From assembly GCA_050015395.1 (NCBI GenBank), contig JBEKBM010000002.1, positions 1 through 64,000 on the forward strand: a DNA stretch of 64,000 nt, read 5' to 3'. Source of the DNA: Candidatus Bathyarchaeia archaeon (GTDB lineage Archaea; Thermoproteota; Bathyarchaeia; Bathyarchaeales; Bathycorpusculaceae). Numbering within the stretch: the stretch's first letter is position 1; the number at the start of each line of letters is the position of its first letter. The translations under genes and the position numbers were made by a program. Positions 15,127 to 33,447 of the stretch are shown here, in pieces. The notes under the pieces are model-generated. The model was not told the origin of the DNA and did no database searches. It worked only from the letters and a program-made list of their open reading frames with translations.

Positions 15127-16217
15127 TAGACCTTAGTCGTTATTATTTTTAGTTCTTTGTTGTAGGTTTTATCGCTTTTTTGGAGCCTTTTCAGATAAGC
15201 AATGTCCCCGTTATTCGAAAGTTAACCAGTCCACACACTATGTCTGTCGCTTTATCGTAATGTTTAAGGCGATTCCTAAACTCATCAGCCCATATGTGAA
15301 ACTTCTTCAGCCTAGAAAAACGTATGCTCAACCACCACCCTCTCCTTTGAAAGCTCCTTATTGAAAGCTTTCTGCTCAGGCGAAAGCTCAGGACCCTTCT
15401 TGCCCCGTTTGCCTCGTCCAGGATTCTTCCTCTTGAAAGGCAATACACAGTTTAGCTTTGGATAATCAGTCTTTATGCCCTTATAGCCCAAATCTAAACC
15501 TAACCGGACGTTATCCGGCAAGTCTGGATGGCTATGCTTATACAAGGCGTAGTCATGAGTGCTTCCCCTAACATGAGCTGTCTTATGGACTATAAACCCG
15601 TTTTGATTCACTGTTATCTGGGTTTTTACGGTATGTTTCTTTTTCTTGCCGCTGTAGTGAGTCTTTTGTTTACGCTTGGCTTTGGGTCTTGGGATCTCCT
15701 GTTCAGTTGCGTCCAAGAAAGCCTTGGAGCCAGGGAACATGGCTTCAATTTCATCAACTGTCTCTATCTTCCTAACTTTGTCATGCTCTTTTTTTGGCAG
15801 CGGCAGCACCTCGCTAACCAGAGGTTCTAACTTTCTGATGGTTTTTAGCACGCTGGTCTGGCTAACGCCGAAGAGGTAGCCTAGCAAAGTTGATGATGTG
15901 TACATGTGGTAGTACAGCAGCAGCATGAGTAAATGGTCTGTTAGTGAGCGGTTGAATGGGTGGCCTGCGCCGACTGCTCTTTTTCTATCTGCTCTGAAGA
16001 GCCTTTTTTGCTCATAGGCATCGTATTTCTCTTTTATCTTCAGGTTTAAGGTGTCAAATTCTTGAACTTCAAGGCCTGAAAAATTCCTGAAATATGAAGG
16101 CTTTTTTGATAATACGTCGTAATTTAGCATGCAAACACCCCAAAAGCCAAATATTGCACCTATAGGCTAATACAACCTTCGTTTCAGCGCTAAAATCCTA
16201 ATTAATACTAATGTCTA
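15127..16217 (-). mobile_element. IS5-family-like insertion sequence
   Basis: Terminal inverted repeats TAGACCTTAGT (15127) / ACTAATGTCTA (ends 16217) enclosing a DDE transposase. Confidence 0.85.
15191..16130 (-). pseudogene. HTH + DDE transposase, frameshifted near 15316-15320
   Basis: FLDATEQ, YSGKKKKHTVK, DLGYKG, ERVVVEH; the tail SRLKKF...GLVNF lies in another frame after a T5 run. Confidence 0.85.
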
Positions 16218-16468: not shown

Positions 16469-16885
16469 ATGGCTGATATTGTAGATACTGCTATTGCAGC
16501 GGGTTCTTTCAAAACCCTTGTTGCAGCTGTTACGGCAGCAGGATTAGTTGATACACTAAAAGGCAAGGGACCGTTCACGGTTTTTGCACCAAATGATGAG
16601 GCTTTCGCTAAATTGCCCAAAGGCACAGTTGAAGGTCTTCTAAAAGACAAACCGAAATTGACGGCGGTTCTAACTTACCATGTTGTCGCTGGAAAAGTCA
16701 TGGCGGCAGACGTTGTGAAGCTTAAGAGCGCAAAAACTGTTCAGGGACAGGAAGTCAAGATTGATGCGTCCAAATGGCATCTTCACAAGAACGTAAAGAT
16801 AAACGATGCTGAAGTAGTCAAAGCAGATATTGTTACAGACAACGGCGTTATCCATGTAATCGATAAGGTACTGATGCCAAAGTAA
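16469..16885 (+). CDS. Single-domain fasciclin (FAS1) protein, no signal peptide
   Basis: [31 protein letters not shown]; GAGGTGA RBS. Confidence 0.95.
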
Positions 16886-17022: not shown

Positions 17023-17853
17023 ATAAACTACAAAGAAAGACAGGAAATAATAGCTAAATCGCCAATATCTTTCAGCTATCTGAAAAAATTCAACATTGGT
17101 GCAGGCATTCTGCAACTAATAAACGGCATCGTTATTCTGTCGCTGACATTTCTTTTAAAATGGCCCCACGGAACGAACATTTACACTTTCTACCTCCAAT
17201 TCCAACACGTTAGTCCAACAAATATCGCAATTACAGTATTCCCAAACCCTCAAGTGCTCTTCACAATTAGCCATTTAGGGGTGTTGCTAGCTGCTTTTCC
17301 GCTAATCTCCGCAGTTGACCACTTCCTTGTTGCCTTCCCAAGAAACCAATCTTACAATGAAAACCTAAAGAAAGGGATGAACCCCTACAGATGGTTCGAA
17401 TACGCGTTTTCAAGTTCAATAATGATCTGGGTTATCTCGACTTTCGTCGGAATCTGGGACTTCTGGTCCTTAGCAATGATATTTGTCTTGAACGCACTGA
17501 TGATAATGTTCGGCTACCTAATGGAGATCATAAATCAAAAAACCGAGAAAACAAACTGGTCCGCTTTCATCTTAGGCAGCATCTCAGGAGGCTTCCCGTG
17601 GGTGGTGTTGTTCGCTTACTTCATAGGAGACGTCATAGCAAGTGATAACAGCGTGCCAAAGTTCGTATACTTGATATTCTTCATTTATCTTGTTCTGTTC
17701 ATGAGTTTCGCAGTTAACATGGTTCTCCAATACAAAGGCATCGGACGCTGGAAAGACTACCTATACGGGGAAAGAGCATACATAGTATTGAGCTTCGTAG
17801 CAAAAACACTGTTAGTCTGGCTCGTATTCGCTGGCTTATTCAAACCGTTCTAG
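17023..17853 (+). CDS. Heliorhodopsin (frame open from 17008; probable start ATA at 17023)
   Basis: NPYRWFEYAFSSSIM (counterion Glu), GYLME, YLYGERAYIVLSFVAK (retinal Lys, SxxxK); TM1 KKFNIGAGILQLING is upstream of the ORF-track start; GGAGGA at 17011-16. Confidence 0.9.
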   Translation: MNYKERQEIIAKSPISFSYLKKFNIGAGILQLINGIVILSLTFLLKWPHGTNIYTFYLQFQHVSPTNIAITVFPNPQVLFTISHLGVLLAAFPLISAVDHFLVAFPRNQSYNENLKKGMNPYRWFEYAFSSSIMIWVISTFVGIWDFWSLAMIFVLNALMIMFGYLMEIINQKTEKTNWSAFILGSISGGFPWVVLFAYFIGDVIASDNSVPKFVYLIFFIYLVLFMSFAVNMVLQYKGIGRWKDYLYGERAYIVLSFVAKTLLVWLVFAGLFKPF

Positions 17854-18827: not shown

Positions 18828-19003
18828 ATATATTTTTATGCCATAATTTAGCGTTTTACTCATGGAGAACATTATAAAGGCTTGTTTCTTTAATTTAAAA
18901 AATACTCTGCTTTATGTGTCGATTTTCGAATCGAATACTGTTTTCTTCACTTGAATACTGCTTAAGTAAGATCACGATAGATAGTTTGATAGGTGAAAAT
19001 AAA

Positions 19004-19231
19004 ATGGTATCACAAAGTCCGGATACGGGTAGCTTAGCCGAAGTTCTTGATCGAGTACTTGATAAGGGAATAGTCGTCGACGCGTGGGCAAGGGCTTCGT
19101 TGGTTGGTATCGAAATTTTAACCATCGAAGCAAGAGTGGTGGTCGCGTCAGTTGACACCTTCCTGCACTACGCCGAAGAAATCACAAAAGTGGAACAAGC
19201 TGCAATCGCTGCCCCCATCCCTGCAGCCTAA
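19004..19231 (+). CDS. gvpA: Gas vesicle major structural protein GvpA
   Basis: [51 protein letters not shown]; AGGTGA RBS before ATG 19004. Confidence 0.97.
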
Positions 19232-20098: not shown

Positions 20099-21184
20099 AT
20101 GAAATTTGAACCTACCCATAAAAGAGTTGTGCGGGGCAAGCGGGTTCACGAAACAGCGGAGGAAAGACATTCAAAACAGGCATTGGAAAGAAGAACACGG
20201 GAACTCTCAGATATGCATGTAGAAACGGAGTGCTTGACGCCCGCAATTGAAAGTTTTATCGAGACTGAGCAGGTTAGGAAGCTAAAGGATAGAGTTAAAC
20301 TGTGGGTTAAAGCTGGGTGCTCTCCCCACATAGTTGGACCAACAGGTTGCGGAAAGACAACGCTGGCAATGCAAGTAGCAAAAGAGTTGGGAAGACCTAC
20401 CGTATGGATAAACGGCGACGACCAGATGACAACAACAGATCTAATAGGGGGATACTCAGAAATGGAAGCCGAGAGCCTGAGAGACAAATACATTCACAAT
20501 GTCTGGTTAACAAGAGAAACAGTGAAACGCCGGTGGGTTGATAATCCGCTAACGCTTGCATGCAAATACGGCTACACGCTAATTTACAACGAGTTCTCCA
20601 GGTCAAAGGCAGAAGCAAACAACGTTCTCCTATCGGTGCTAGAGGAACATGTACTCGAACTTCCAACAATGTTCGGAGAAGAAAGATACGTAAAAGTTCA
20701 TCCTGATTTCAACGTGATATTCACGAGCAACTCCATAGAATACGCAGGAGTACACAAACCACAAGACGCCCTGCTAGACAGAATGATAGACATATACATG
20801 GACTACTACGACTTTGATACAGAGACAAAAATCGTTCAGGCGCACTCTCGCGTCTCACTTCCTGAAGCGCAAAAAATTGTCACAGTCGTAAGGACAATGA
20901 GAGAAAAACTACCTGGGCCTCATAAACCCGGCACAAGATCAGAAATAATGATTTCTCAGGGTTTGAAGACTCTAGGCAACTACTCAAGCGAAGATTTTGA
21001 ACAGATATGCTTGGATGTTCTCGCAACCAAAATAGGCAACTCACTGGAGACCCTCAACAAAACCGACCACATAAAAGAAATACTTAACGAAGCCTACACT
21101 GAAGTCCAAATCGGGAAAACCAGCGCAACAATCCCAGCCATCAACGTCTGCAACACCTATGCCCACCAGAAACCGGAGGAATAG
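20099..21184 (+). CDS. gvpN: Gas vesicle AAA+ ATPase GvpN
   Basis: GPTGCGKT, WVDNPLTLAC..G.TLIYNEFSRSK.EANNVLLSVLEE, EYAGVH..QDALLDR. Confidence 0.95.
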   Translation: MKFEPTHKRVVRGKRVHETAEERHSKQALERRTRELSDMHVETECLTPAIESFIETEQVRKLKDRVKLWVKAGCSPHIVGPTGCGKTTLAMQVAKELGRPTVWINGDDQMTTTDLIGGYSEMEAESLRDKYIHNVWLTRETVKRRWVDNPLTLACKYGYTLIYNEFSRSKAEANNVLLSVLEEHVLELPTMFGEERYVKVHPDFNVIFTSNSIEYAGVHKPQDALLDRMIDIYMDYYDFDTETKIVQAHSRVSLPEAQKIVTVVRTMREKLPGPHKPGTRSEIMISQGLKTLGNYSSEDFEQICLDVLATKIGNSLETLNKTDHIKEILNEAYTEVQIGKTSATIPAINVCNTYAHQKPEE

Positions 21185-21186
21185 AA

Positions 21187-21474
21187 ATGGGAACGCAGAA
21201 GGCTTCAATATACAAAGTTATTGACAACGCGCTTGCCATAGCAGAGAAGTGCATTTCCAAGACTCCCGGGACCATAGTAGAAGTCAATGAAAAAAATGAC
21301 GAATGGACAGTTTTAGTTGAAGTTCTGGAGAGAAAGGCATGTCCTGACACTCAAGACATTCTAGGAAGATACCAGATCAGACTCACTAAGGATGGCGAAC
21401 TAATCGGCTGGACGCAGAAGATGATTAGAAGACGCTGCGACAGAATAACGCCAGAGCAAGCGGCAGAAGTATGA
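21187..21474 (+). CDS. gvpO: Gas vesicle protein GvpO
   Basis: WTVLVEVLERKACPDTQDILGRYQIRL...GEL. Confidence 0.9.
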   Translation: MGTQKASIYKVIDNALAIAEKCISKTPGTIVEVNEKNDEWTVLVEVLERKACPDTQDILGRYQIRLTKDGELIGWTQKMIRRRCDRITPEQAAEV

Positions 21475-21502: not shown

Positions 21503-22345
21503 ATGGAAACAACGTCCGCCTTCGGCACTCAAACATCTCCAAATAGAGAAGTCAAATGCCTAAACCACACCTTTCATCTTTACACACCGAAGGTCGACAA
21601 ATACACAATCCAGAGAGCATTTCTAATTCCTGCCCAAAACGAAAAGCAAATAGTGTATGTAACCACCAGCGACCAAGCAGCTCTGATGCGTGAGTTCAAC
21701 CCAGCGAATGTTAAGCTTAGAATTATCCCGCCCGAAGGACTCAAAGGACTCCAAAAAGAAGAAAACCGTGAAATGCAGCTCATCGTAGACGCAGGATCCA
21801 TGGTCGACCAGAAAAGCGCTGAAATTGAAGAAAGGGAGAATTTTCTGAACGCATTTTGCAAAGCGCGGAACATAGATTGCCTCTGCACATATGACGTTGC
21901 CAAACTTAGCTTTGAAAAAATCAAGCAATTGGCAGGCTACCACAATCAACTTCGCCTTACGACCAGTGATCTGACAATACTCTCTGGAGACTTGTTTGAT
22001 GAATCTAAAGTTTCAGGTGACTCCATCGAAAAAATGGTGAAGGACAATCTGGAAAACATCATCCTCGCTATCCTGCAAAAGGAGACGATGTGCGGGACCG
22101 ACATAATAGGAACTATACACTTGAAATTCAACGTTCTGCTGAGCCCTGGAACCATATACCCGCTGCTTCACTCGTTAAAACAGAAAGGATTACTATCAGT
22201 TAAGAAGTCTGGCAAGGAAATAGTCTACGCTCCAGTTGAAGACGCTAAACCGAAAATTAGAAGAATAGTTAATGAGCACATTCAAGCTCGCAGGTTTTTG
22301 AATCAATATTTGCAAGAGGAAATAAAATTCAGAGGTGCTGAGTAA
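21503..22345 (+). CDS. MEDS-like sensor fused to PadR wHTH (GvpE-like regulator)
   Basis: N-terminal H.FHLY...CLCTYD; C-terminal IILAIL...GTDII...F.VLLSPGTIYPLLHSL. Confidence 0.7.
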   Translation: METTSAFGTQTSPNREVKCLNHTFHLYTPKVDKYTIQRAFLIPAQNEKQIVYVTTSDQAALMREFNPANVKLRIIPPEGLKGLQKEENREMQLIVDAGSMVDQKSAEIEERENFLNAFCKARNIDCLCTYDVAKLSFEKIKQLAGYHNQLRLTTSDLTILSGDLFDESKVSGDSIEKMVKDNLENIILAILQKETMCGTDIIGTIHLKFNVLLSPGTIYPLLHSLKQKGLLSVKKSGKEIVYAPVEDAKPKIRRIVNEHIQARRFLNQYLQEEIKFRGAE

Positions 22346-23068
22346 ATGGAAAAGTGCGAAATACTTGAACACGATTCAAAGAACGAAATACCAATTAGAG
22401 AACACAGAGAACTGCAAAAGGAAGAGGGAAAATACTTCTACTGCGTAATGCTCTGTAACGAAAAAAAGAGTTTCGGCAAGATAGGCATTAACAACAGCGA
22501 AGTCTACACCATTCCTTACAAAAATGTCGCAGCAGTAGTAAGCGATTCCCCAATGAAAGACTACGAACTAACAGAAGACAATACCCAGAACCATGAAAAA
22601 GTCATCAGGCAAGTAATGGAAGAGCACACGATCGTGCCAGCGGAATTTGGAACACTAATAAAAAACGAGGTAATTCTAAAGCGCCTACTCGGCAAAGCCT
22701 ACTTACCCACAAGAGAATGCCTAAAGCTAGTTGACAACATGATCGAGCTCGGAGTAAAAGCAGTTCTAACCGAGAACGCTGTGGCTGTCGACGCAAAAAT
22801 AAGAAGGGAATGTGCCTCAGATATTTTGGAATCGCTAAAGGCTCAGGCAAAGCAAGCAGTCACAAGTGATTTGTTCAGTGAGCGGTTGATTTTAAACGCG
22901 TCCTTTCTTGTTAACAAAGAAGGCATTGATGCATTTTCAAACGAAGTGGAAAGACTGCAGAAAAAACACTCACTTATTAGGCTTCTTTACAGCGGACCAT
23001 GGGCTCCCTACAATTTTGTTTACATAAAAATCGGGGCAGATGGCATGAAGATAACACAGAACAGGTGA
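22346..23068 (+). CDS. gvpF: GvpF/GvpL-family protein
   Basis: GKYFYCV, HEKVI..VM...TIVPAEFG, ELGVK, LNASFLV, SGPWAPYNFV. Confidence 0.88.
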   Translation: MEKCEILEHDSKNEIPIREHRELQKEEGKYFYCVMLCNEKKSFGKIGINNSEVYTIPYKNVAAVVSDSPMKDYELTEDNTQNHEKVIRQVMEEHTIVPAEFGTLIKNEVILKRLLGKAYLPTRECLKLVDNMIELGVKAVLTENAVAVDAKIRRECASDILESLKAQAKQAVTSDLFSERLILNASFLVNKEGIDAFSNEVERLQKKHSLIRLLYSGPWAPYNFVYIKIGADGMKITQNR

Positions 23069-23073
23069 AACAC

Positions 23074-23364
23074 ATGCCTTTCTTTATAGATGACATTTTC
23101 CTGCGAATGGTGGGCCTTTCTCTGCCACCGTTTGACATGATTTGGCTTATGGAAACAATTACGGATCATGCTGACGAAATATGGGTAAAGGAAAATCAAC
23201 AAAAGATTAACAACAAAATAAGAGAGAACCGGTTACTCTACGAGCTAGGCGAAATAACAAAGGAAGAATACGATAAAAGAAACACGGCGTTGAGCCATCA
23301 GCGTCTCCTGTACAAACGGGTAAACAGAGTGCAACTTAGCCAGAGGATAAACTCACTAGGCTAG
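23074..23364 (+). CDS. gvpG: GvpG-like protein
   Basis: FFIDDIF...IRENRLLYELGEITKEEY; follows gvpF. Confidence 0.8.
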   Translation: MPFFIDDIFLRMVGLSLPPFDMIWLMETITDHADEIWVKENQQKINNKIRENRLLYELGEITKEEYDKRNTALSHQRLLYKRVNRVQLSQRINSLG

Positions 23365-23405: not shown

Positions 23406-23792
23406 ATGGAAAACCGTACCTTAACACCTGAAAAAGAGCACTCAGGCCTAGCCGATGCCATCGATAGAATTTTAGACAAAGGATTAGTAATTAACGCCGA
23501 CATCGCCATCAGCGTTGCTGGAGTCGAGCTGCTTGGAATAAAAATAAGAGCCGCTCTCGCTTCTTTTGAGACAGCAGCAAAATACGGACTTGAGTTTCCG
23601 TCCGGAACTAACTTAGAAACACCTGCTTTTAAAGAAGCCATAACCGAAAAAGAGAACTGCCCCCAATGTGACAAACGAGTTGATAGGGAGGAACTGCTGA
23701 ACTTCGCGTGTCCTTGGTGTGGCTGGGAAAGCGTAAGGGCAAAAAAAAGCAAGGCAATTAAGGTCGCTGAAAAGGTGGGGGTTCGACGTTGA
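23406..23792 (+). CDS. gvpJ: GvpJ (GvpA family) with C-terminal Zn ribbon
   Basis: LADAIDRILDKGLVINADIAISVAGVELLGIKIRAALASFETAAKYGLEFP; CPQC...CPWC. Confidence 0.9.
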   Translation: MENRTLTPEKEHSGLADAIDRILDKGLVINADIAISVAGVELLGIKIRAALASFETAAKYGLEFPSGTNLETPAFKEAITEKENCPQCDKRVDREELLNFACPWCGWESVRAKKSKAIKVAEKVGVRR

Positions 23793-24325
23793 GTTTATCA
23801 GAAAAATTGAACTTGCTTCTCAAAGCAGTAGATGAGACGAGCCAACTAATAATGACTTATCTTTTGAAAGAAAGATATGCGGGTATTAGGGAGTTAACGA
23901 GTCTAGTTTGCGCTTCTTCCGACATGGAAGTGCTAATGAGAATTAGAGAAATCATAAACCCGAAAGCACAGGAAGTCATAGGAATACCTATTCTCAAGTT
24001 TGAAAGATCCAAAATCGATCTTTTAACTGGCCAAAAAATCTTGTTCAACTGGTGGATAAATGAAGAATTGGCGAACAGGGCACGCGACGACGAATTAGTA
24101 GACGTTATGGACGAAAAAAACTGCCTAAGAGTAATAGCCGCTCTGCCCCCACAAGAGGATAACGTCGCTGTCAAAGTGGAAGATTCTCTTCTGGTAATCT
24201 CGGGGAAGGAATACCACAAAGAGCTGCTCCTTTTTTGTCCTGTTGAAAAGAAGGCTTTCCAAACTATCAACAATGGTGTTTTAGAAGTCAAATTGAACAA
24301 AGTAGCTGATAAAATATGCCGATAG
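23789..24325 (+). CDS. GvpH-like Hsp20-fold protein with N-terminal HTH-like region
   Basis: LVDVMDE...INNGVLEVKL; position between gvpJ and gvpK. Confidence 0.65.
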   Translation: MSLSEKLNLLLKAVDETSQLIMTYLLKERYAGIRELTSLVCASSDMEVLMRIREIINPKAQEVIGIPILKFERSKIDLLTGQKILFNWWINEELANRARDDELVDVMDEKNCLRVIAALPPQEDNVAVKVEDSLLVISGKEYHKELLLFCPVEKKAFQTINNGVLEVKLNKVADKICR

Positions 24326-24630
24326 AAATCGATGAACACAACCTGAAATCTGGGCTCCTTGGACTAGTTGTAGCGCTAGTGGAGGTTGTGCAAGAGGTTC
24401 TTGAAAGAGAATCGATACGAAGAATGGAGTCTGGTAAACTAAGTGAGATGGAAATCGAAGGGTTAGGAAAGGGACTAATGGAGCTTGACGTAGCGCTCAG
24501 GCATATAAAAGAGGAGAATGATCTCGAAAGCCTTGTCAGGTCTGTGCGGTCTGATCTCGACAAATTGGTGGAAGAAACCATTGACGTGATGGCTAACCCA
24601 GAAAGATGGAAACAGCATAAGGGGGATTGA
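24316..24630 (+). CDS. gvpK: Gas vesicle protein GvpK
   Basis: GLLGLVVALVEVVQEVLERESIRRMESGKLSEMEIEGLG. Confidence 0.92.
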   Translation: MPIEIDEHNLKSGLLGLVVALVEVVQEVLERESIRRMESGKLSEMEIEGLGKGLMELDVALRHIKEENDLESLVRSVRSDLDKLVEETIDVMANPERWKQHKGD

Positions 24631-24631
24631 A

Positions 24632-25441
24632 ATGTCTCGAGAAAGCGATTACGGAGAGGGAAGATACATTTATTGCATAGTAAACAGCGTCAAAGAAAAG
24701 GATTTTGGGCAAGTCGGAGTTGAAGACAATAGAGTCTACGTCGTAGCCTTTAACGACATTGGTGCAGTTGTCCACAGTTGCGAGGCTAAGCCCTATAAAA
24801 CAGGCGCAAAAGAAAAAGCGAGTGAGTGGATCCTGTCCCATCAATACGTTATTGACTTAGCTACGAATGAATTCGACACAGTGATTCCTCTAACCTTTGA
24901 TACAATTTTCAAAGGAAATAATGAAACACTAAAAATGTGGCTCAGCAAGGAGTACGAACAACTTAAAGCTCTATCGGCAAAGCTTAAAGGGAAAGCCGAA
25001 TATGGCGTTCAGGTTTTCCTCGAGAACGATTTCGTTGACAGAAACGTGAAGGATAGTCAAGAAATTCAGAATCTGGAAGAACAACTTAAAAACGCAAGTA
25101 GTGGGGTTGCCTACTTGCTTAATAAGAATTTAAAAAAACGAAGGCAAATTGAACAGCATCTTGTCTTAGACAAATATGGAAATGAACTGTGCGCCAAGAT
25201 CGAGAAGCTTGTTGACGACCTAAAACTTGGTTCAATAAATAAGGAAGTTCCCGAAGAATGGAAAGGCAAACAGATGATCCTCAACATAACCTGCCTTGCG
25301 CAAAAAGATAAAATTGAAAACTTAGGAACCCTGCTGGGGCAGCTTAAGAAAGAGGGTTTCGCTGTGAGGTTCACTGGTCCTTGGCCTCCATACTCTTTTG
25401 TAGGGCAGTTAAATGAGTCAAAAACTGTGGGAAGTGGGTGA
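24632..25441 (+). CDS. gvpL: GvpL/GvpF-family protein
   Basis: GRYIYCIV, HQYVID, IPLTFDTIF, GKAEYGV, FTGPWPPYSF. Confidence 0.88.
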   Translation: MSRESDYGEGRYIYCIVNSVKEKDFGQVGVEDNRVYVVAFNDIGAVVHSCEAKPYKTGAKEKASEWILSHQYVIDLATNEFDTVIPLTFDTIFKGNNETLKMWLSKEYEQLKALSAKLKGKAEYGVQVFLENDFVDRNVKDSQEIQNLEEQLKNASSGVAYLLNKNLKKRRQIEQHLVLDKYGNELCAKIEKLVDDLKLGSINKEVPEEWKGKQMILNITCLAQKDKIENLGTLLGQLKKEGFAVRFTGPWPPYSFVGQLNESKTVGSG

Positions 25442-26430
25442 AAACTGAAATGGGAAAGTACCTTTATGGGATTATTAATTCGGAGAATAGACAAAGTTTT
25501 GGCAACATTGGGCTGGACAATGGTGAAGTATACAGTGTACAATTTGAGGATGTCGGAGCAGTCGTTAGCGACATTCCCGAAAACCGTGAGGTCGGAATAG
25601 CCGAGGTCAAAATTCACGAAGCGACATTACGGAAAATAATGGAGACTCACGCAGTAATTCCCATGAATTTCGGAATAATAGCCAAAGACGAGGCAGAAAC
25701 AAAAAAGGTTCTAAAACAAGCTCGGATGAAGCTGAAGAAGACGTTGGAAAAGGTTGACAATAAACTGCAGATCAATGTTAAGATCTCATGGGACAAAGTC
25801 GTCCTCGCAGATATTTTAAAAGAAAGCGGGGAAATACGGAAATTGACAAGGGAAGCGAAGGAAAAAGCTGACCAATCACTCATGATTGAGCTAGGGCGAA
25901 AAGTTAAGTTAGTGTTAGACAAATGGAAAAGCGAATACGTAGAGGACGTAAAAAGTTCGCTGAAAAGTTTATCAGATGAATTGGACGAAAACAAAGTCAC
26001 TGATCAAAATACACTGATGCATGCTGCTTTTTTGGTTAATAAAAAGCGAGAACAGGAATTCTACAGTAAACTAGAAGAGTTAGAGAAGAAATACGAGAGA
26101 AAACTCGAGTTTCTCGCCGTCGGTCCCCTGCCGCCGTACAATTTCACCAAAGTTGGAGTAACGCGAATAAATTTTGACGACGTGGAAGCAGCAAGAAAAG
26201 CCTTGGGGTTGAGCCATGAGGTAAGTATATCCGAAATCAGCTCCGCGTACAATATGCTTGTTCGGCGGTACCATCCTGACCTTCATCTAGGGGATCCACA
26301 TGCAGAAGAGAAATTCAAGGAAATAAAGAGTGCTTATAGCTTATTGACAAAGTATTGCGAACATTACCTTTGCTCCCTCCAGAAAACGGTAGTCGAAGAA
26401 ACTATTCTCGTGGAGGAAAAGGGCAGCTAA
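25438..26430 (+). CDS. GvpL/F-family protein fused to a C-terminal J-domain
   Basis: GKYLYGII...IPMNFG...GPLPPYNF then ALGL...ISSAYNMLVRRYHPDL...AEEKFKEIKSAY. Confidence 0.88.
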   Translation: MKTEMGKYLYGIINSENRQSFGNIGLDNGEVYSVQFEDVGAVVSDIPENREVGIAEVKIHEATLRKIMETHAVIPMNFGIIAKDEAETKKVLKQARMKLKKTLEKVDNKLQINVKISWDKVVLADILKESGEIRKLTREAKEKADQSLMIELGRKVKLVLDKWKSEYVEDVKSSLKSLSDELDENKVTDQNTLMHAAFLVNKKREQEFYSKLEELEKKYERKLEFLAVGPLPPYNFTKVGVTRINFDDVEAARKALGLSHEVSISEISSAYNMLVRRYHPDLHLGDPHAEEKFKEIKSAYSLLTKYCEHYLCSLQKTVVEETILVEEKGS

Positions 26431-26439
26431 AGCCTCTGA

Positions 26440-28377
26440 ATGGTGATTGCCATGTGTCGAACAATGGGAATCGATCTTGGAACATCCAACTCTGCTGCCG
26501 CTGTAATGAAAGATGGAAAAATAAGACTGGTACCAGCGTCTGAAGGGCCAACCGCTTATGGGAAAATGTTTCCGTCTATTGTTGCGTTTAGGGAAGATGG
26601 CGAAATAGTCGTAGGCAAGAACGCAAAGAGCTACGCCTACATTCACCCAGAAAGAACGGTACGATGGATTAAAAGAAAAATGGGCACAGATTACGTCGTA
26701 AACATAGACGGTTACGCGTATACTCCTCAAGAGATATCCGCATTAATACTAAAGAAGATGAAAAAAGACGCAGAAACGTATTTGGGCGAGACGATAGACA
26801 AGGCAGTAATTTCAGCGCCAGCGTACTTCAACAATAACCAGAGGAACGCCACGAAAGAGGCGGCGGAAATAGCTGGGCTGGAAGTTTTGAGGATCGTCAG
26901 CGAACCAACAGCGGCTTCACTAGCCTACGGTTTAGACCAGGCGGGAAAAAACCTTAAGATAGCAGTATTGGATTTGGGCGCTGGAACTTTTGACGTAACC
27001 ATTTTGCAGATAAACAACAGTGTATTCCAAGTCATATCTACCAGCGGAGATACAAACCTGGGTGGCAAAGACATGGATGACGCAGTTTTAGATTATCTCG
27101 TTAGCGAAATAGAGGAGAAATACGGCGTTAACTTAAGGGCCGACAAGAAAAACTTGAACAGGGTTAGGGATGCTGGAGAAATGGCGAAGATTCTCCTCTC
27201 AAGAAAGCGCTTAACAACTGTGAAACCCACACTTGACTTGGATGGATCCAGACTTAGCCCATGCATAACCTTAACCCGGAAAAAGCTTGAAGAACTCATC
27301 CAACCACAACTTGAGAGACTCCGATATCCACTGAAGCAGGCTTTAAGAGACTCAGCCATGGTACCTCAAGATATAGACAAACTGGTTCTGGTGGGTGGAC
27401 CAACTAGGACACCTATTGTTAGAGAGTATTTTAGAAGCTATTTTGAAGTGGAACCTGAGATAGGCATTGATCCTATGGGAATAGTAGCTACTGGCGCCAG
27501 TGTCCAGGCCAGTGTTTTAAACGGTGAAATAAAAGATATGCTGCTGCTTGATGTCACGCCCCTATCTCTAGGCGTGGAGACATCGGGCGGATTATTTACG
27601 CGATTGATCAAGAGAAATACTACCCTTCCAACTGAGGAAAACATGACATTTGCAACCGAAGAAGACAACCAGACCTCGATGATGATAAATGTCCTACAAG
27701 GCGAGCGGGAGCTCGCGAAAGATAACATATCCGTCGGTTTGTTCAAACTGAACGGCATCCCTCCAGCACCCAGATATGAGCAAAAGGTTGAAGTCGCCTT
27801 CAAGATAAATGCCGACGGCATATTAACTGTCTCTGCCGAGATTTTGGAAACAGGGAAAAGAAAAGTCATCAAGATTGCTGAGACAAAGGTTCTGTCAGAG
27901 GAAGAAATCACCAGGATGATCATCGAAGCAACCAAGTATAACGAGATTGATGAAGAAGCAAAGGAGGTCGTGGAAACTCGTAACCGAGCAGTGGCTGTGA
28001 TTTATTCAGCAGAGAAATCAATAGAAAGGCTGGGTATAAAAATCTCTGAAATGGACAAAAGAGCGCTGGAAGAAGCTTTAGAGAAACTAAGAGCTGCGTT
28101 GAATGGCTGCAAGCTTCAGAAAGTCAAAGCGTACACGGATGAGTTGTTGAGACTTATGGAAGAAGTGAACATAAAGTTGAAAAAGGTAAGTCAAGCGAAA
28201 ACGTTGTTGTCTTCTGTGGAGAGAAAAATAGGCGGCAAGTTGTCTAGCGAAACCAGAAGTAAACTCAGGGAAGCTGTTAAAAGGCTGGAAGAGGCGCCAT
28301 ACGAGCATGTTAGCGAAGAAGCCATCAAACTGAAAGAAATGGCAGCCGTACTAGAAGTTGACTACGGAGAATGGTGA
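26440..28377 (+). CDS. dnaK: Hsp70/DnaK, cluster-associated paralogue
   Basis: GIDLGTSNS, DLGAGTFD, LVGGPTR, linker DMLLLDVTPLSLG; extended helical tail. Confidence 0.93.
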   Translation: MVIAMCRTMGIDLGTSNSAAAVMKDGKIRLVPASEGPTAYGKMFPSIVAFREDGEIVVGKNAKSYAYIHPERTVRWIKRKMGTDYVVNIDGYAYTPQEISALILKKMKKDAETYLGETIDKAVISAPAYFNNNQRNATKEAAEIAGLEVLRIVSEPTAASLAYGLDQAGKNLKIAVLDLGAGTFDVTILQINNSVFQVISTSGDTNLGGKDMDDAVLDYLVSEIEEKYGVNLRADKKNLNRVRDAGEMAKILLSRKRLTTVKPTLDLDGSRLSPCITLTRKKLEELIQPQLERLRYPLKQALRDSAMVPQDIDKLVLVGGPTRTPIVREYFRSYFEVEPEIGIDPMGIVATGASVQASVLNGEIKDMLLLDVTPLSLGVETSGGLFTRLIKRNTTLPTEENMTFATEEDNQTSMMINVLQGERELAKDNISVGLFKLNGIPPAPRYEQKVEVAFKINADGILTVSAEILETGKRKVIKIAETKVLSEEEITRMIIEATKYNEIDEEAKEVVETRNRAVAVIYSAEKSIERLGIKISEMDKRALEEALEKLRAALNGCKLQKVKAYTDELLRLMEEVNIKLKKVSQAKTLLSSVERKIGGKLSSETRSKLREAVKRLEEAPYEHVSEEAIKLKEMAAVLEVDYGEW

Positions 28378-28973
28378 GCTTGGAACCTGCAAGAGATGGT
28401 GCACTCGTAGACCTTGTTGACAGAATCTTGGTCAAAGGCGTAATTCTTCAGGCAGATCTTGTCATATCAGTTTCCGGGGTGCCTTTGATTGGTGTTAACT
28501 TGAAAGCTGCAATTGCCGGCATGACAACCATGGTGGATTATGGGATTATGGAAGCTTGGGACGAAAAAATCAGAAAGTCCGTCCTAGTAGATAGCGAGGA
28601 AGAAGCCCCCTTAAATGAGAACGAAAAAATCATCTTCAAGACATTTGGTTCACATTATTATCGCGGCACGTCTCTTCCAGGCATTTGGAGAAATGGATAT
28701 CTTTATCTCACGAACAAAAGGCTCTTCTTGTTCCGGAAAAAACCCGCCCAAATCCTATTTGAAATAGCTCTGGACAAAATTGAAGGCATAACTATCGAAG
28801 GAAAGAATCATCTGAAGGAGAAGGAAGAAATCATTCTACTTTTGCTTGGAAATGATCAATCAGACAGTGATGTAGTGTTGCTTCGCACTGACGAAATAAG
28901 AGAGCTTAAAAGGAAAATTGAAGAAAGAATAACAAAGGGTGGACCAGTGGAAGTTTTATCTTCCATTCAATAG
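28371..28973 (+). CDS. gvpM: GvpM (GvpA family) fused to a GRAM/PH-like domain
   Basis: LVDLVDRIL.KGVILQADLVISVSGVPLIGVNLKAAIAGMTTM..YG; then GYLYLTNKRLFLF. Confidence 0.82.
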   Translation: MVSLEPARDGALVDLVDRILVKGVILQADLVISVSGVPLIGVNLKAAIAGMTTMVDYGIMEAWDEKIRKSVLVDSEEEAPLNENEKIIFKTFGSHYYRGTSLPGIWRNGYLYLTNKRLFLFRKKPAQILFEIALDKIEGITIEGKNHLKEKEEIILLLLGNDQSDSDVVLLRTDEIRELKRKIEERITKGGPVEVLSSIQ

Positions 28974-28998: not shown

Positions 28999-29397
28999 TT
29001 AAGAAATTTCTACGCGGGTTTTTATGAAGTTATTCATTATTTGGAAAGATAAGTTATAAGCGGTGAATTTTTTTTCGAATATTTCTTTTCCTTTAGGGGT
29101 CAAACAGTAGATTGTTTTTCCTTTGTCAAAGGTTGGTTCTATCAGTTTATTTTCCTCTAAGAGGTGGAGTTGAGGATATAGGGAAGCGGGGCTGAGCAAA
29201 ATACCGAATTCTCTGTGGATGGTAGCCAAAATTTTGTAGCCGTGCATGGACCGCCCATTCAACAGGGCTAAAATTACTATATCTAAAAAAGTCTTGACTT
29301 GCCTTTCAATAATCCGCTCATCGAGCAGTACATCTTTTTCAATAACTTTCAAGTTTGTTCTCTCCAATATGGACTTTACGATAAAACAAAACTTCAT
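28999..29397 (-). CDS. PadR-family regulator
   Basis: LDIVILALL...HGYKI...FGILLSPASLYP.L..LEE...YCLTPKG. Confidence 0.85.
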   Translation of the reverse strand: MKFCFIVKSILERTNLKVIEKDVLLDERIIERQVKTFLDIVILALLNGRSMHGYKILATIHREFGILLSPASLYPQLHLLEENKLIEPTFDKGKTIYCLTPKGKEIFEKKFTAYNLSFQIMNNFIKTRVEIS

Positions 29398-30065: not shown

Positions 30066-31247
30066 TTGGCTGCTCATCAAAGCGTGTTCAAAGACGAGGC
30101 TAAGCTTGACATAAACTACGTTCCGCAGAAGCTGCCTCACAGAGAAAAAGAACACCGCTTGCTGATGGAATTTTTCAGTTTTATCCTTCGTTATCCGGAA
30201 AGGATGTCTCAGCGCGTAATTGTAACAGGCGATGTTGGCACTGGAAAAACAGTCCTTGCACAACGCTTTGGAGCAAATATTACTTCTGAAGCCAACAAGC
30301 GAGCCATAAAATTCCGCTATGTACATGTTAACTGCCGAGAATACCGTGGAAGCCTCTCCCCCATTTTGCACCATGCCGTCACCGTTTTCCGCCCCAACTA
30401 TCCTGCCCGTGGCTACTCTGCAGAAGAAGTCCTCACAGTACTCATGCAAGTTTTAGATGAGGAAAACGCCTTCATAATATTAACCCTAGATGAGTTTGAC
30501 AGCCTCATCGAAAAGGAAGGCTCAGACGCTGTTTACAAGTTGACGCGTTTGCAGGAGATGCGGCAGGGCAAGCCGCAGAGGTTGTCATTTATTTTTATTT
30601 TACGTGATTTAAAAGCATTAGAGAAGTTAGATGCGAGCGCAAGAAGCACTCTACAACGCAGCATCATCAATTTAGAACGCTACGGCAAAGAACAACTCGT
30701 TGACATCTTAAATGACCGTGTTTCAATGGCGTTTGAGTTAGGAGCCGTTCAGGAAGACGTTGTTGACCTAATTTCTGATTTGGCTTTTAAAGAAACTGGG
30801 AATGCCCGTTTCGGAATTGAATTATTGTGGCGTGCTGGGAAATATGCAGACGCCCAAGATGCGGGCAGAGTCGAGCCTGAGTGCGTTCGCATGGCAGTGT
30901 CCAGTATTGTTCCTAGTATACGTCGAAGTGAGCTAGCTGGGCTCGGTTTACACCAAAAATTGTTCCTGCTCGCGGTAGCACGTTACTTTAAGGGCAATGA
31001 GCAGGCTTACGCTTTGTTATCTGAACTTGAGAAAACCTATGCGGTTGTTTGTGAAGAGTTCGGTGTGGAGCCGAATAATCACACGCAATTGTGGAATTAC
31101 GCCCAGTTTCTCTCATCAATGGGCGCTTTAACAGTTGAAGTAGCCACAACCCGCGGAAGGTCAACACAGGTTTCACTTTCCATTCCAGCAAGTGAGTTAG
31201 AGAAAGAATTAAGTGCCAGCTTAGAAGTAGAAAAAGAGAAAACGTGA
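30066..31247 (+). CDS. cdc6: Orc1/Cdc6 replication initiator
   Basis: YVPQKLPHRE, GDVGTGKT, VHVNC, LDEFD, GNARFGIELL, C-terminal wH. Confidence 0.92.
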   Translation: MAAHQSVFKDEAKLDINYVPQKLPHREKEHRLLMEFFSFILRYPERMSQRVIVTGDVGTGKTVLAQRFGANITSEANKRAIKFRYVHVNCREYRGSLSPILHHAVTVFRPNYPARGYSAEEVLTVLMQVLDEENAFIILTLDEFDSLIEKEGSDAVYKLTRLQEMRQGKPQRLSFIFILRDLKALEKLDASARSTLQRSIINLERYGKEQLVDILNDRVSMAFELGAVQEDVVDLISDLAFKETGNARFGIELLWRAGKYADAQDAGRVEPECVRMAVSSIVPSIRRSELAGLGLHQKLFLLAVARYFKGNEQAYALLSELEKTYAVVCEEFGVEPNNHTQLWNYAQFLSSMGALTVEVATTRGRSTQVSLSIPASELEKELSASLEVEKEKT

Positions 31248-31254
31248 AGCAATT

Positions 31255-31530
31255 ATGGAGTTAGAAGAAGTTTTTTCATCAAAGCTTCGAATCAAAATTT
31301 TAAAACTCATCTACCAATTAGGTTCCCTTAACGTTTCAGACATTGCTCGACGACTCAACAGTAACTTCACAGCGACATCTGAGAACTTGAAAATTTTAGA
31401 AGCTGAAGGCATTTTGCACGAACTCGTTTACGGCAGAGTTCGCATGTACAGGTTCAATGAGAACTCAGCAAAAGCTAAAGCCGTGCAAAACCTAATAGAA
31501 GCATGGGAACAAAATAAACAAGGTGAATAA
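31255..31530 (+). CDS. wHTH (ArsR-like) protein
   Basis: EEVFSSKLRIKILK...LNVSDIARRL. Confidence 0.8.
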   Translation: MELEEVFSSKLRIKILKLIYQLGSLNVSDIARRLNSNFTATSENLKILEAEGILHELVYGRVRMYRFNENSAKAKAVQNLIEAWEQNKQGE

Positions 31531-31533
31531 ACT

Positions 31534-31971
31534 ATGGCAATGGTTGATGTTTCAGGCAAAGATGAAATTTTCCGAGAAGCAACCGCATCCGGAACCATAA
31601 AGTTGAAGGCAGAAACAATCAATTTAATTAAGACTGGAAAAATCGCGAAAGGCGACCCACTTTACACGGCAAAAATCGCCGGCGTACTTGCAGCTAAGAA
31701 AACAAGCAGCCTTATTCCTCTATGCCACCCGTTGCCTTTGACGAACGTGCAGGTTGACGTAAAAGTGCTGAATGAGGGCACGGTTGAGGTTTCAGCAACC
31801 GTCAAAACAAAAGCGCAAACTGGTGTGGAAATGGAAGCACTTACCGCGGTTTCGATGGGTTTGTTGACTGTTTGGGACATGACAAAGCAGTATGAAAAAG
31901 ACGCTGCAGGTCAATATCCTTCTACGGCAATTGAGAATATTCATGTTGTCCGCAAGTTTAAGAAGGTGTAG
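31534..31971 (+). CDS. moaC: Cyclic pyranopterin monophosphate synthase
   Basis: MVDVSGK, LIPLCHP, TGVEMEAL. Confidence 0.95.
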   Translation: MAMVDVSGKDEIFREATASGTIKLKAETINLIKTGKIAKGDPLYTAKIAGVLAAKKTSSLIPLCHPLPLTNVQVDVKVLNEGTVEVSATVKTKAQTGVEMEALTAVSMGLLTVWDMTKQYEKDAAGQYPSTAIENIHVVRKFKKV

Positions 31972-31977
31972 CTTTGC

Positions 31978-32511
31978 ATGAGTGAAACCTCTAAGGCGCA
32001 TAAGGCTAAGGCACCTAAAACATTGAACTTTGGCATTTACATGTGCAGTACTTCACGATATAAGCAGATGCAACAGGGTGAAGCTGCGGTTAGTGATGTT
32101 TCAGGCGACACATTGACTGATTTGCTAAGAAACGCTGGACAAAACGTCCTGTTCAAAAAAATAATTGCAGACGATAAAGTCATGATTTCTGATGCAGTTC
32201 AGCAAGCCCTAAACACGCCCGATTTGGACGTTGCCATCTTTTCCGGTGGCACAGGAATCACGCCGACAGATGTTACGATTGAAACGGTTTCGCCTTTCTT
32301 TGAGAAAACCCTGCCGGGTTTCGGCGAGTTTTTTAGGCGCATAAGCTTTGACCGTGTTGGCTCTGCCGCGGTTTTGTCCCGTGCCGTAGCTGGGGTAGCT
32401 AAGGGCAAAGCATTGTTTTGTATCCCAGGTTCCCCTGATGCTGTGCATGTTGCGGTAGAAATGCTTATTTTGCCCGAGTCTCCACACATCGTTAAGCACG
32501 CGCGGGAATAA
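31978..32511 (+). CDS. moaB: MoaB/MogA molybdopterin adenylyltransferase
   Basis: GGTGITPTDVT, PGFGEFFR, SRAVAG, PGSP. Confidence 0.92.
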   Translation: MSETSKAHKAKAPKTLNFGIYMCSTSRYKQMQQGEAAVSDVSGDTLTDLLRNAGQNVLFKKIIADDKVMISDAVQQALNTPDLDVAIFSGGTGITPTDVTIETVSPFFEKTLPGFGEFFRRISFDRVGSAAVLSRAVAGVAKGKALFCIPGSPDAVHVAVEMLILPESPHIVKHARE

Positions 32512-32514
32512 CGA

Positions 32515-33447
32515 ATGAGTTTAACAGACAACTGTGGCAGACCTCTACTTAACCTGCGGATATCGATTACCCAGCGATGCAACATTCACTGTGTATACTG
32601 CCACAGAGAAGGCGAAGTAAAACGCGCAAACCGTTCCGCAGAAAAAATGTCAGTTCAAGAAATAGTCCGGATAGCCAAAATAGCCGTTAGCTTAGGCATT
32701 GCACGCATAAAATTAACGGGCGGAGAACCACTCATGCGCCAAGACCTCCCAGAAATCATCTCAGGCATAGCCTCGGTGCCTGGCTTGAAGGATTTGTCGT
32801 TAACAACTAACGGTCTTTTGCTTGGCGACATGGCGAAGAAGCTGCATGAGCGGGGGTTGAAGCGCATCAACATTAGTTTGCCATCTTTGAATGAGGAAAC
32901 GTATCGCAAGCTAACAGGCGGAAAACTCCAAGACGCACTGGCAGGAGTAAAAGCCGCCATTGAAGCGGGTTTCTGCCCGGTAAAACTCAACATGGTTATC
33001 CTAAAAGACGTAAACGTGAGCGATGTTCCAGATATGATAGAGTACGCGCGGCAAACTGGCGTGGTGCTGCAACTCATAGAGCTTGACCCCATAAACGTCA
33101 GCAACACCTACTACACGACGCACCACCGCAGCCTAGATGAGCAGGAAGAAATGTTGCGCGAGAAGGCTGTTACGATTGAGAAAAGACCATTTATGCATAA
33201 CCGCCTCATCTACCACTTGCCAAACGTAACCGTTGAAGTCGTGCATCCAATTGAGAACAGCGACTTTTGCGTGCACTGCACACGAATCCGCGTCACAAGC
33301 GACGGCAAACTAAAACCCTGCCTGATGAGAAACGACAACCTAACAGACATACTAACGTCTATACGACAAGGAGCAAACGACCAACAACTAAAGGAATTAT
33401 TCGTAAAAGCTAACCTGCTAAGAGAACCATACAACAAAAGCAGTTAA
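32515..33447 (+). CDS. moaA: GTP 3',8-cyclase
   Basis: LRISITQRCNIHCVYC, TGGEP, FCVHCTRIRVTSDGKLKPCL. Confidence 0.95.
   Translation: MSLTDNCGRPLLNLRISITQRCNIHCVYCHREGEVKRANRSAEKMSVQEIVRIAKIAVSLGIARIKLTGGEPLMRQDLPEIISGIASVPGLKDLSLTTNGLLLGDMAKKLHERGLKRINISLPSLNEETYRKLTGGKLQDALAGVKAAIEAGFCPVKLNMVILKDVNVSDVPDMIEYARQTGVVLQLIELDPINVSNTYYTTHHRSLDEQEEMLREKAVTIEKRPFMHNRLIYHLPNVTVEVVHPIENSDFCVHCTRIRVTSDGKLKPCLMRNDNLTDILTSIRQGANDQQLKELFVKANLLREPYNKSS

Follow-up and report, generated by a model that had tools for sequence, protein, structure and literature searches.

We analyzed a stretch of 64,000 nucleotides (nt) from a Candidatus Bathyarchaeia archaeon (assembly GCA_050015395.1, contig JBEKBM010000002.1, positions 1 to 64,000; hereafter the window), a peat archaeon whose gas-vesicle (gvp) cluster appears to encode its own two-part chaperone and thereby points to an ATP-driven chaperone step in vesicle building. 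The first part is a protein of 330 codons that joins a GvpL/F domain to a J-domain (25438..26430, + strand), and the second is an Hsp70 of 645 amino acids encoded directly downstream (26440..28377, +; Pfam HSP70 PF00012, E = 3.2e-177), referred to below as the gvp-linked Hsp70. On the strength of the sequence comparisons described here, we consider it likely that the two form a J-protein/Hsp70 pair that is dedicated to the assembly of gas vesicles and private to the gvp cluster. Chaperoning or hand-over of a client protein would be the task of this pair with a probability slightly better than even.

Both genes belong to a densely packed gas-vesicle cluster that runs on a single strand from approximately 18.9 to 29.4 kb of the window. 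The stop codon of the fusion gene ends at position 26430 and the ATG of the Hsp70 gene lies at 26440, leaving a spacer of 9 nt, while the Hsp70 stop codon (28375–28377) falls inside the next open reading frame (ORF; 28371–28973), with an overlap of 7 nt. An earlier reading made from the DNA letters alone (the sequence-only reading) had placed dnaK directly after the fusion and overlapping gvpM, and this arrangement holds, the overlapping ORF being GvpM-like. Both start codons may lie slightly further downstream: the fusion might begin at the ATG at 25450, because its database twin (P0003) has 326 amino acids, and the Hsp70 at the ATG at 26452, because the consensus of related Hsp70s begins near the fifth residue of the window protein. 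These alternative starts leave the overall picture unchanged.

The fusion protein consists of two well-delimited domains. Residues 6–237 match the Pfam GvpL_GvpF domain (PF06386) over positions 1–244 of the 245 in the model (E = 2.7e-53; 182 bits against a cut-off of 23.6), and residues 255–305 (nt 26200–26352) match the DnaJ domain (PF00226; E = 1.2e-13; 51.4 bits against a cut-off of 27.8). The HPD tripeptide, located between helices II and III of the J-domain, occupies residues 279–281 (nt 26272–26280) and is invariant in all 14 sequences of the fusion alignment. A profile search of the PDB with 14 relatives recovered GvpF structures (6l5d_A, E = 9e-24, and 4qsg_A) over residues 2–236, and DnaJ J-domains (1bqz and 5nro_B, E about 3–6e-10) over residues 251–301; 5nro_B is the J-domain chain of the E. 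coli DnaK-J complex. According to Pfam, the protein carries neither zinc-finger nor DnaJ_C domains, and with a J-domain above the curated threshold and an HPD tripeptide it is a predicted class C (type III) J-domain protein. Its scores fall below the NCBIfam equivalog cut-offs for both GvpF (NF052351; 77.8 against 350) and GvpL (NF045778; 55.4 against 200), and the cluster contains two more GvpL/F genes. The fusion represents a third GvpL/F paralogue line, with a clade of its own in the GvpL/F tree, that is neither GvpF nor GvpL in the equivalog sense, in agreement with the original description of a third GvpL/F paralogue ending in a J-domain with an intact HPD.

The J-domain is followed by a conserved Cys/His tail of 25 residues (306–330; window 26353–26427). 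Y306, C307, E308 and C312 are invariant in the 14 sequences and H309 is nearly so, with the wider family showing the looser form 'YC....SF'. This tail may bind a metal or serve as a docking element for an Hsp70.

The gvp-linked Hsp70 is one of two such proteins in the organism. The assembly (2.59 Mb in 42 contigs, 98.9% complete) contains exactly two Hsp70, two J-domain and one GrpE matches, and the second Hsp70, the second J-domain and the sole GrpE together form a grpE-dnaK-dnaJ operon on contig C33. J-domains are consequently found only on C33 and in the fusion, and GrpE only on C33, as expected from the earlier remark that no grpE or canonical dnaJ lies near the gvp cluster. The gvp-linked Hsp70 stands outside this operon neighbourhood, between the fusion and the GvpM-like gene, and shares 49% identity with the housekeeping copy. 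It passes the NCBIfam DnaK model NF001413 narrowly (657.6 bits; cut-off 648) and remains below TIGR02350 (652.5 bits; cut-off 822.55), whereas the housekeeping copy, with 847.2 bits in the former model, passes both DnaK equivalogs. Assignment to HscA was rejected: the protein scores 492.1 bits with TIGR01991, below the cut-off of 708.55, and E. coli HscA lies outside its clade. The possibility, raised in advance as the one that would overturn the idea of a specialized Hsp70, that this gene is the sole or a vertically inherited DnaK is likewise rejected, given the separate operon on C33, the 49% identity and the separate clade described below. Organism mixing during binning does not explain the two systems, because in the closest related genome both lie on one contig, approximately 180 kb apart.

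We compared 15 archaeal gvp-linked Hsp70s with 24 housekeeping Hsp70s in E. coli DnaK numbering, using criteria given by Mayer (2021; PMC8215388). The catalytic residues D8, K70, E171, T199 and D201 and the LLLD interdomain linker are kept in at least 14 of the 15 gvp-linked proteins, and the residues that contact the HPD motif (R167, Q378, L391 and P419) in all of them. By the catalytic and linker criterion of the Hsp70 superfamily, the gvp-linked Hsp70 is therefore predicted to be an active ATPase.

Other functional positions set the gvp-linked proteins apart. In the arch over the bound peptide, position 404 is changed from methionine to serine in 13/15 (leucine or methionine in 23/24 housekeeping proteins) and position 429 from alanine to glutamate or glutamine in 12/15 (alanine in 24/24 housekeeping proteins); the window protein has S404 and E429 in place of the DnaK-typical M/L404–A429 pair. 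V436 is replaced by methionine in 13/15. The R56–E264 salt bridge has lost R56 in 14 of the 15 gvp-linked proteins, whereas all 24 housekeeping proteins have arginine there; the K55–E267 bridge is kept in 13. Within the GrpE signature (residues 290–295), G292-P293 is deleted in 13/15 and kept in the housekeeping rows, and K294 and H295 are not conserved in the gvp-linked group. An unbiased scan found that positions fixed in housekeeping and free in gvp-linked proteins are densest in subdomains IB and IIB. Finally, the usual tail is replaced by a conserved, helical-looking C-terminal extension of the last ~60–65 residues (window 28180–28374) that ends in LLEAD.GE; this extension is common to the gvp-linked Hsp70s of Bathyarchaeia and Thermoplasmatales and absent in the copies from Methanocellales and from a 'Halobacteria' metagenome-assembled genome (MAG). 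Taken together, the changes are of the same kinds as those that separate HscA and HscC from DnaK, and the gvp-linked Hsp70 probably works without GrpE.

The pairing of the two genes is conserved across genomes. The sequence-only reading had suggested a domain-architecture search for GvpL_GvpF plus DnaJ, and all of the best 120 of the 772 database relatives of the fusion (E <= 0.001) indeed carry both Pfam domains. Among species-representative genomes, 20 loci were found, and in 14 of them (L006–L019) the fusion is followed immediately downstream by an Hsp70 gene on the same strand. By their labels, these comprise nine Bathyarchaeia/Bathyarchaeota and one each of Micrarchaeota, Thermoproteota, Thermoplasmatales, Halobacteria and Methanocellales. 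The pair stays intact even where the cluster is rearranged, lying on the strand opposite to the other gvp genes in L019 and detached from them in L017, and no archaeal locus shows it apart from gvp genes. Among 201 evenly sampled genomes from the class of the window, Bathyarchaeia, the full-length fusion occurs in four, each time with an adjoining Hsp70 (4/4), and the other J-domain matches in this sample are ordinary DnaJ genes. No Hsp70 was found within the fetched flanks of L023 and L024, where the GvpL/F protein is plain and carries no J-domain.

The fusion family extends well beyond archaea, and in a language-model atlas its clusters are mostly bacterial. Clustering at 50% identity gave 154 representatives at E <= 1e-30; among the best 150 of these, 140 have a J-domain, of which 136 keep the HPD tripeptide. 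Bacterial fusions, labeled as Deltaproteobacteria, Anaerolineae and Alphaproteobacteria, have HPD in every case. In a sample of 301 genomes from the phylum of the deltaproteobacterial match (G005), GvpL/F genes occur in 23, and in 11 a fusion extends as far as the J-domain. Bacterial gvp stretches with an Hsp70 inside were seen in 3 of 10 newly fetched regions and in L020.

The genomic inventory of the hosts differs. This genome, G197 and G172 keep a full housekeeping system beside the gvp-linked pair. Searches of G018 and G008 recovered no J-domain besides the fusion, no Hsp70 besides the gvp-linked copy and no GrpE at all; G018 is 100% complete by markers, with 1% contamination. If these two assemblies are representative, the fusion must be the J-protein of that Hsp70, and the Hsp70 must work without GrpE. 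The same genomes bear on the idea that a general-purpose Hsp70 system travels with the gvp island and serves ordinary proteostasis, for example in archaea that have no DnaK. It would suit this idea that 47 of the 201 sampled class genomes have no Hsp70 at E <= 1e-60, that the gvp-linked copy is the only one found in G018 and G008, and that the cluster also includes an Hsp20-like gene. However, the sole J-domain of G018 and G008 is fused to a GvpL/F domain, the arch of the gvp-linked proteins departs from the DnaK-typical pair, three hosts retain the full housekeeping system, and the archaeal pair was never seen apart from gvp genes. We regard a general-purpose role as quite improbable.

Phylogenetic analysis separates the gvp-linked Hsp70s from the DnaKs of their hosts. 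In a careful IQ-TREE analysis (LG+G4) of 55 Hsp70 sequences, the 16 archaeal-type gvp-linked proteins form one clade (support 100/99) that excludes the housekeeping copies from these genomes; the latter fall into a group of their own. FastTree and a quick IQ-TREE run under LG+G4 agree on this clade. The gvp-linked Hsp70 of the window belongs to it, which answers the earlier call for a DnaK phylogeny against the housekeeping copy. Four bacterial gvp-linked Hsp70s constitute a second clade (100/99), separate from the DnaKs encoded in the host genomes. Constraining the 20 gvp-linked rows, a group defined after the first tree had been viewed, to a single clade costs 39.5 log-likelihood units (p = 0.0173 in the approximately unbiased (AU) test), and the rows are united in none of 200 bootstrap trees. 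A single origin of all gvp-linked Hsp70s is accordingly disfavored, and two independent recruitments of Hsp70s to gvp clusters are favored by these trees, which use a simple substitution model and a small sampling of bacterial Hsp70 diversity. The frameshifted Hsp70 of L008, a 258-amino-acid fragment from G350 and the truncated fusion of L086 were left out of the trees.

A tree of the GvpL/F domains, from which the J-domain columns had been removed, likewise places the archaeal fusions in one clade (99 in the Shimodaira–Hasegawa-like approximate likelihood ratio test, SH-aLRT), and the presence of the J-domain on this tree needs only one change. The inner branching order of the archaeal fusions equals that of their Hsp70s, as expected if fusion and Hsp70 were inherited as a unit. 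As a separate observation, locus L057 (G010:C29) of a 'Halobacteria' MAG contains a further, very divergent Hsp70-like gene (38% identity), which sits on a long branch outside all groups.

Several observations weigh against a dedicated pair. In DnaK, D477 forms a salt bridge with K48 of the J-domain (PMC8215388). Position 477 is lysine in 10 of the 15 gvp-linked Hsp70s, and the fusion keeps the matching lysine (K294). Thus, the contact between the J-domain and the substrate-binding domain cannot be the textbook one, and the reciprocal K48–D477 charge swap, considered as proof of a private interface, was not found. Some fusions had no Hsp70 in the DNA covered: none was found in L022 and L025 or in 7 of the 10 bacterial stretches, although many of those contigs are short. 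In L008, the Hsp70 gene is split by a frameshift with in-frame stops, which means either that the gene is dispensable there or that the assembly is faulty. For G018 and G008, the assemblies from which the housekeeping genes are missing are drafts. More generally, taxon labels of metagenome-assembled genomes may be wrong and mis-binning is possible. One such bin from the deltaproteobacterial phylum (L086, G480:C35) has a contig with an archaeal-type pair, and the Hsp70 on it groups as sister to the one in the Bathyarchaeia genome G172; this reflects either mis-binning or transfer between domains.

The unconserved D477 contact would also suit a reading in which the J-like domain is a structural remnant that makes no contact with Hsp70 and the adjacency of the two genes is coincidental, as would the fact that the Pfam DnaJ match ends at model position 55 of 63 and gives way to the non-canonical Cys/His tail. 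Set against the HPD kept in 136 of 140 J-bearing representatives, the adjacency in 14/14 archaeal loci and the apparent double recruitment of an Hsp70, this reading is scarcely credible.

The dedicated pair that we favor could operate as follows. The fusion would act as a client-selecting J-protein, its GvpL/F domain either sitting in the scaffold of accessory proteins or holding the hydrophobic proteins of the GvpA family (GvpA, GvpJ and GvpM). The Hsp70, in its ATP state, would be brought to the site where these proteins are held, and the C-terminal J-domain would use its HPD motif to trigger ATP hydrolysis in this product of the neighbouring gene. The Hsp70 would then clamp the aggregation-prone shell protein or a scaffold component, which would be handed on to the growing vesicle or, alternatively, the scaffold would be released. 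With its cleft reshaped and its GrpE-binding features lost, the Hsp70 may cycle without a nucleotide-exchange factor, like HscA and HscC. The proposal of the sequence-only reading, that a GvpL/F scaffold uses a J-domain to recruit a specialized, non-housekeeping Hsp70, is supported by each of these comparisons: the separate housekeeping operon, the 49% identity, the synteny (14/14), the HPD conservation (136/140), the 100/99 clade and the genomes in which the pair stands alone. Mutual binding of fusion and Hsp70, the identity of the client, GrpE independence and a role in assembly or release are what we infer from this evidence.

What is known of gas-vesicle proteins suits such a design. In Halobacterium, GvpA binds to no accessory protein but GvpF, while all other accessory proteins are drawn in by GvpL, which serves as a hub (PMC7688916). 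For the Bacillus megaterium system, GvpF has been proposed as a transient chaperone of the shell protein that is superseded by GvpG (PMC11445434), and unchaperoned shell protein aggregates and is proteotoxic (PMC12848028). Given these roles of GvpF and GvpL and the proteotoxicity of the shell protein, a J-domain on a GvpL/F paralogue would correspond to the classic design of a client-specific J-protein.

The same design admits an outcome other than hand-over. Auxilin (GAK) is a lattice-binding protein with a C-terminal J-domain that brings Hsp70 to the clathrin coat for disassembly, and in a comparable release or recycling role the gvp-linked Hsp70 would remove the GvpL/F scaffold or other accessory proteins from the vesicle as it forms. 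This variant draws on the location of the J-domain on the scaffold-type protein itself and on the findings cited above: with GvpL acting as a hub for all accessory proteins (PMC7688916) and GvpF binding the shell only until GvpG supersedes it (PMC11445434), something must release GvpF. Most gvp clusters, however, function without an Hsp70, and the two fusion-less loci had none within their fetched flanks. As a variant of the best explanation, which the present data do not separate from hand-over, release seems unlikely, though it deserves consideration.

The pair is embedded in a set of further gas-vesicle genes. The 5′ part of the cluster starts with gvpA for the major shell protein (18914..19231, +; Pfam Gas_vesicle, E = 9e-15; NCBIfam GvpA NF006874, 127 bits against a cut-off of 100), followed by two small, unassigned ORFs and by a gvpN-like AAA+ ATPase gene (20099..21184, +; Pfam AAA_5, E = 9e-21), whose place beside gvpO (21187..21474, +; Pfam GvpO, E = 6.7e-18) is kept in related loci. 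Next come a gene for a PadR-type winged-helix regulator whose N-terminal part weakly resembles MEDS (21503..22345, +; Pfam PadR, E = 4e-6; Penicillinase_R, E = 6e-6; MEDS, E = 7e-4, under the cut-off) and GvpL/F paralogue 1 (22346..23068, +; Pfam GvpL_GvpF, E = 2e-43). The middle part contains a gvpG-like gene (22999..23364, +; Pfam GvpG, E = 2.4e-8; 34.5 bits against a cut-off of 30.6) and a gene for a GvpJ-like member of the GvpA family (23406..23792, +; Pfam Gas_vesicle, E = 2e-16; NCBIfam GvpJ, E = 2.8e-29, under the cut-off). The zinc-ribbon-like C-terminal segment of the latter protein gives weak matches to HypA, ZPR1 and NF011481 (E = 1.6e-4 for NF011481). An Hsp20-like, possibly GvpH-like gene (23789..24325, +; NCBIfam archaeal Hsp20 NF041800, E = 1.8e-11, under the cut-off; Pfam HSP20, E = 0.05) is also kept in related loci, so that the cluster holds two types of chaperone. 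It is followed by gvpK (24316..24630, +; Pfam GvpK, E = 1.3e-18) and GvpL/F paralogue 2 (24632..25441, +; Pfam GvpL_GvpF, E = 5.4e-57). Paralogues 1 and 2 each fall into a separate paralogue clade of the GvpL/F tree.

In the 3′ part, the fusion and the Hsp70 are followed by the gene for a protein with a GvpM-like N-terminus and a PH-like domain (28371..28973, +; Pfam Gas_vesicle, E = 8e-12; NCBIfam GvpM NF046091, E = 7e-27, under the cut-off). The PH-like C-terminal domain matches Vps36_ESCRT-II (GLUE; E = 1.3e-5) and bPH_3 (E = 4e-4). This gene lies directly after the Hsp70 in most Bathyarchaeia loci, and its product could be a client or docking partner of the pair. A gene for a divergent PadR-family regulator (28999..29397, -; Pfam PadR, E = 1.2e-11) marks the end of the cluster and has a weak counterpart at the same place in several related loci, while the PadR-type gene within the cluster is also kept in related loci.

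The two PadR-family genes in and beside the cluster, together with the precedent that DnaK regulates sigma-32 (PMC8215388), invite the thought that the Hsp70 holds or inactivates a cluster regulator, for example of the PadR type, and so links the cluster to stress. The targeting domain of the J-protein is, however, a GvpL/F domain rather than a module that binds DNA or a regulator, and the pair stays together where regulator genes move (L017 and L019), which makes a regulatory function highly improbable.

Upstream of the cluster, the window contains genes for a DDE transposase (15312–16130, -; DDE_Tnp_4, E = 1e-19), a few kilobases away, and for a fasciclin-domain protein (16469–16885). A heliorhodopsin gene (17254–17853, +; Pfam PF18761, E = 5e-78) is located ~1 kb 5′ of gvpA; its match covers positions 53–241 of the 242 in the model, so that the N-terminus may be absent or the start mis-set. 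A linkage between heliorhodopsin and gvp genes was considered and dropped, as none of the other fetched loci has a heliorhodopsin gene close to its gvp cluster. Past the cluster (30066–33447, +) lie genes for Cdc6/Orc1, a small winged-helix regulator, MoaC, a MoaB-like protein and MoaA, an ordinary chromosomal context. Rfam at its gathering score and a tRNA scan matched nothing in the window. A look through sequencing runs gave 24 with DNA, all of them peat or wetland metagenomes and possible sources of the window itself, and none with RNA.

Full-text literature searches turned up no publication that connects GvpL/F proteins to J-domains or assigns an Hsp70 to gvp clusters. The main text of a large survey of J-proteins (PMC10410713) contains neither 'Gvp' nor 'gas vesicle', and its supplements could list the architecture. 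Automatic database names already label it, for example as 'DnaJ/GvpL/GvpF domain-containing protein'. Both protein families are well known; what we rate as new is a specialized Hsp70/J pair, in the manner of HscB–HscA, that is tied to a prokaryotic organelle. More tentatively, with a probability somewhat short of even, the gvp clusters of many anaerobic archaea and some bacteria would contain a self-contained Hsp70 machine of two genes without an exchange factor, its Hsp70 recruited at least two times independently and the pair spreading with the cluster by gene transfer, including to hosts otherwise devoid of Hsp70, J-protein and GrpE.

If this wider reading is correct, ATP-driven action of an Hsp70 on GvpA-family proteins would be an integral and previously unrecognized step of shell assembly in this type of cluster, and the gvp-linked proteins would be a third or fourth kind of specialized prokaryotic Hsp70 beside HscA and HscC. 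The pair bears on the open question of what keeps the extremely hydrophobic shell protein in solution and how it enters the growing vesicle, for which accessory proteins such as GvpF have so far only been proposed as chaperones (PMC11445434). The pair offers a concrete, testable ATP-dependent step in vesicle building and names the likely adaptor, a J-domain being used here to mark the scaffold of a prokaryotic organelle. For engineering, aggregation of the shell protein and the resulting proteotoxic stress set a limit to vesicle expression in heterologous hosts (PMC12848028), and a matched chaperone pair is a possible helper module. For chaperone biology, a specialized Hsp70/J pair that has apparently shed its dependence on GrpE, and that is the sole Hsp70 system found in some archaeal genomes, would provide a natural minimal system.

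Among known systems, the canonical DnaK–DnaJ–GrpE machine has the same domain layout as the gvp pair, and its catalytic residues, linker and HPD contacts are all found again in the gvp-linked Hsp70. It differs in its GrpE features, arch, C-terminal tail and clade, and in the zinc finger and DnaJ_C domain of DnaJ. The auxilin–Hsc70 system resembles the pair in having a C-terminal J-domain on a protein that binds an assembly. However, it employs the general cytosolic Hsc70 instead of a private paralogue, and only its J-domain is related in sequence. The GvpF and GvpL proteins of Halobacterium, cyanobacteria and Bacillus megaterium belong to the same fold family as residues 2–236 of the fusion, but carry no J-domain.

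Closer parallels are found among the specialized bacterial Hsp70s. Both HscB–HscA, which serves Fe-S cluster assembly, and DjlC–HscC combine a dedicated J-protein with a dedicated Hsp70 and no GrpE (PMC8215388). According to the same source, E. coli HscC is stimulated solely by its own neighbouring J-protein (DjlC/DjlB) and is presumed to be independent of GrpE, but it has large deletions and an insertion in its substrate-binding domain. In our tree it occupies a very long separate branch, and its role is unrelated to gas vesicles. HscA (PMC8215388) has a changed arch, no GrpE signature and lost cleft salt bridges, and does not need GrpE; the same three kinds of change (arch, GrpE signature and salt bridge) are seen in the gvp-linked Hsp70. 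The two differ in that the gvp-linked proteins mostly keep the K55–E267 bridge (13/15) and that E. coli HscA branches outside the DnaK-like sequences in the tree. They also differ in the partner domain of the J-protein, which is HscB_C in HscB and GvpL/F in the fusion. HscB uses its non-J part to bind a single client scaffold and is encoded beside its dedicated Hsp70, a plan that the fusion would share, and by these features HscB–HscA appears to be the closest known parallel to the gvp-linked pair.

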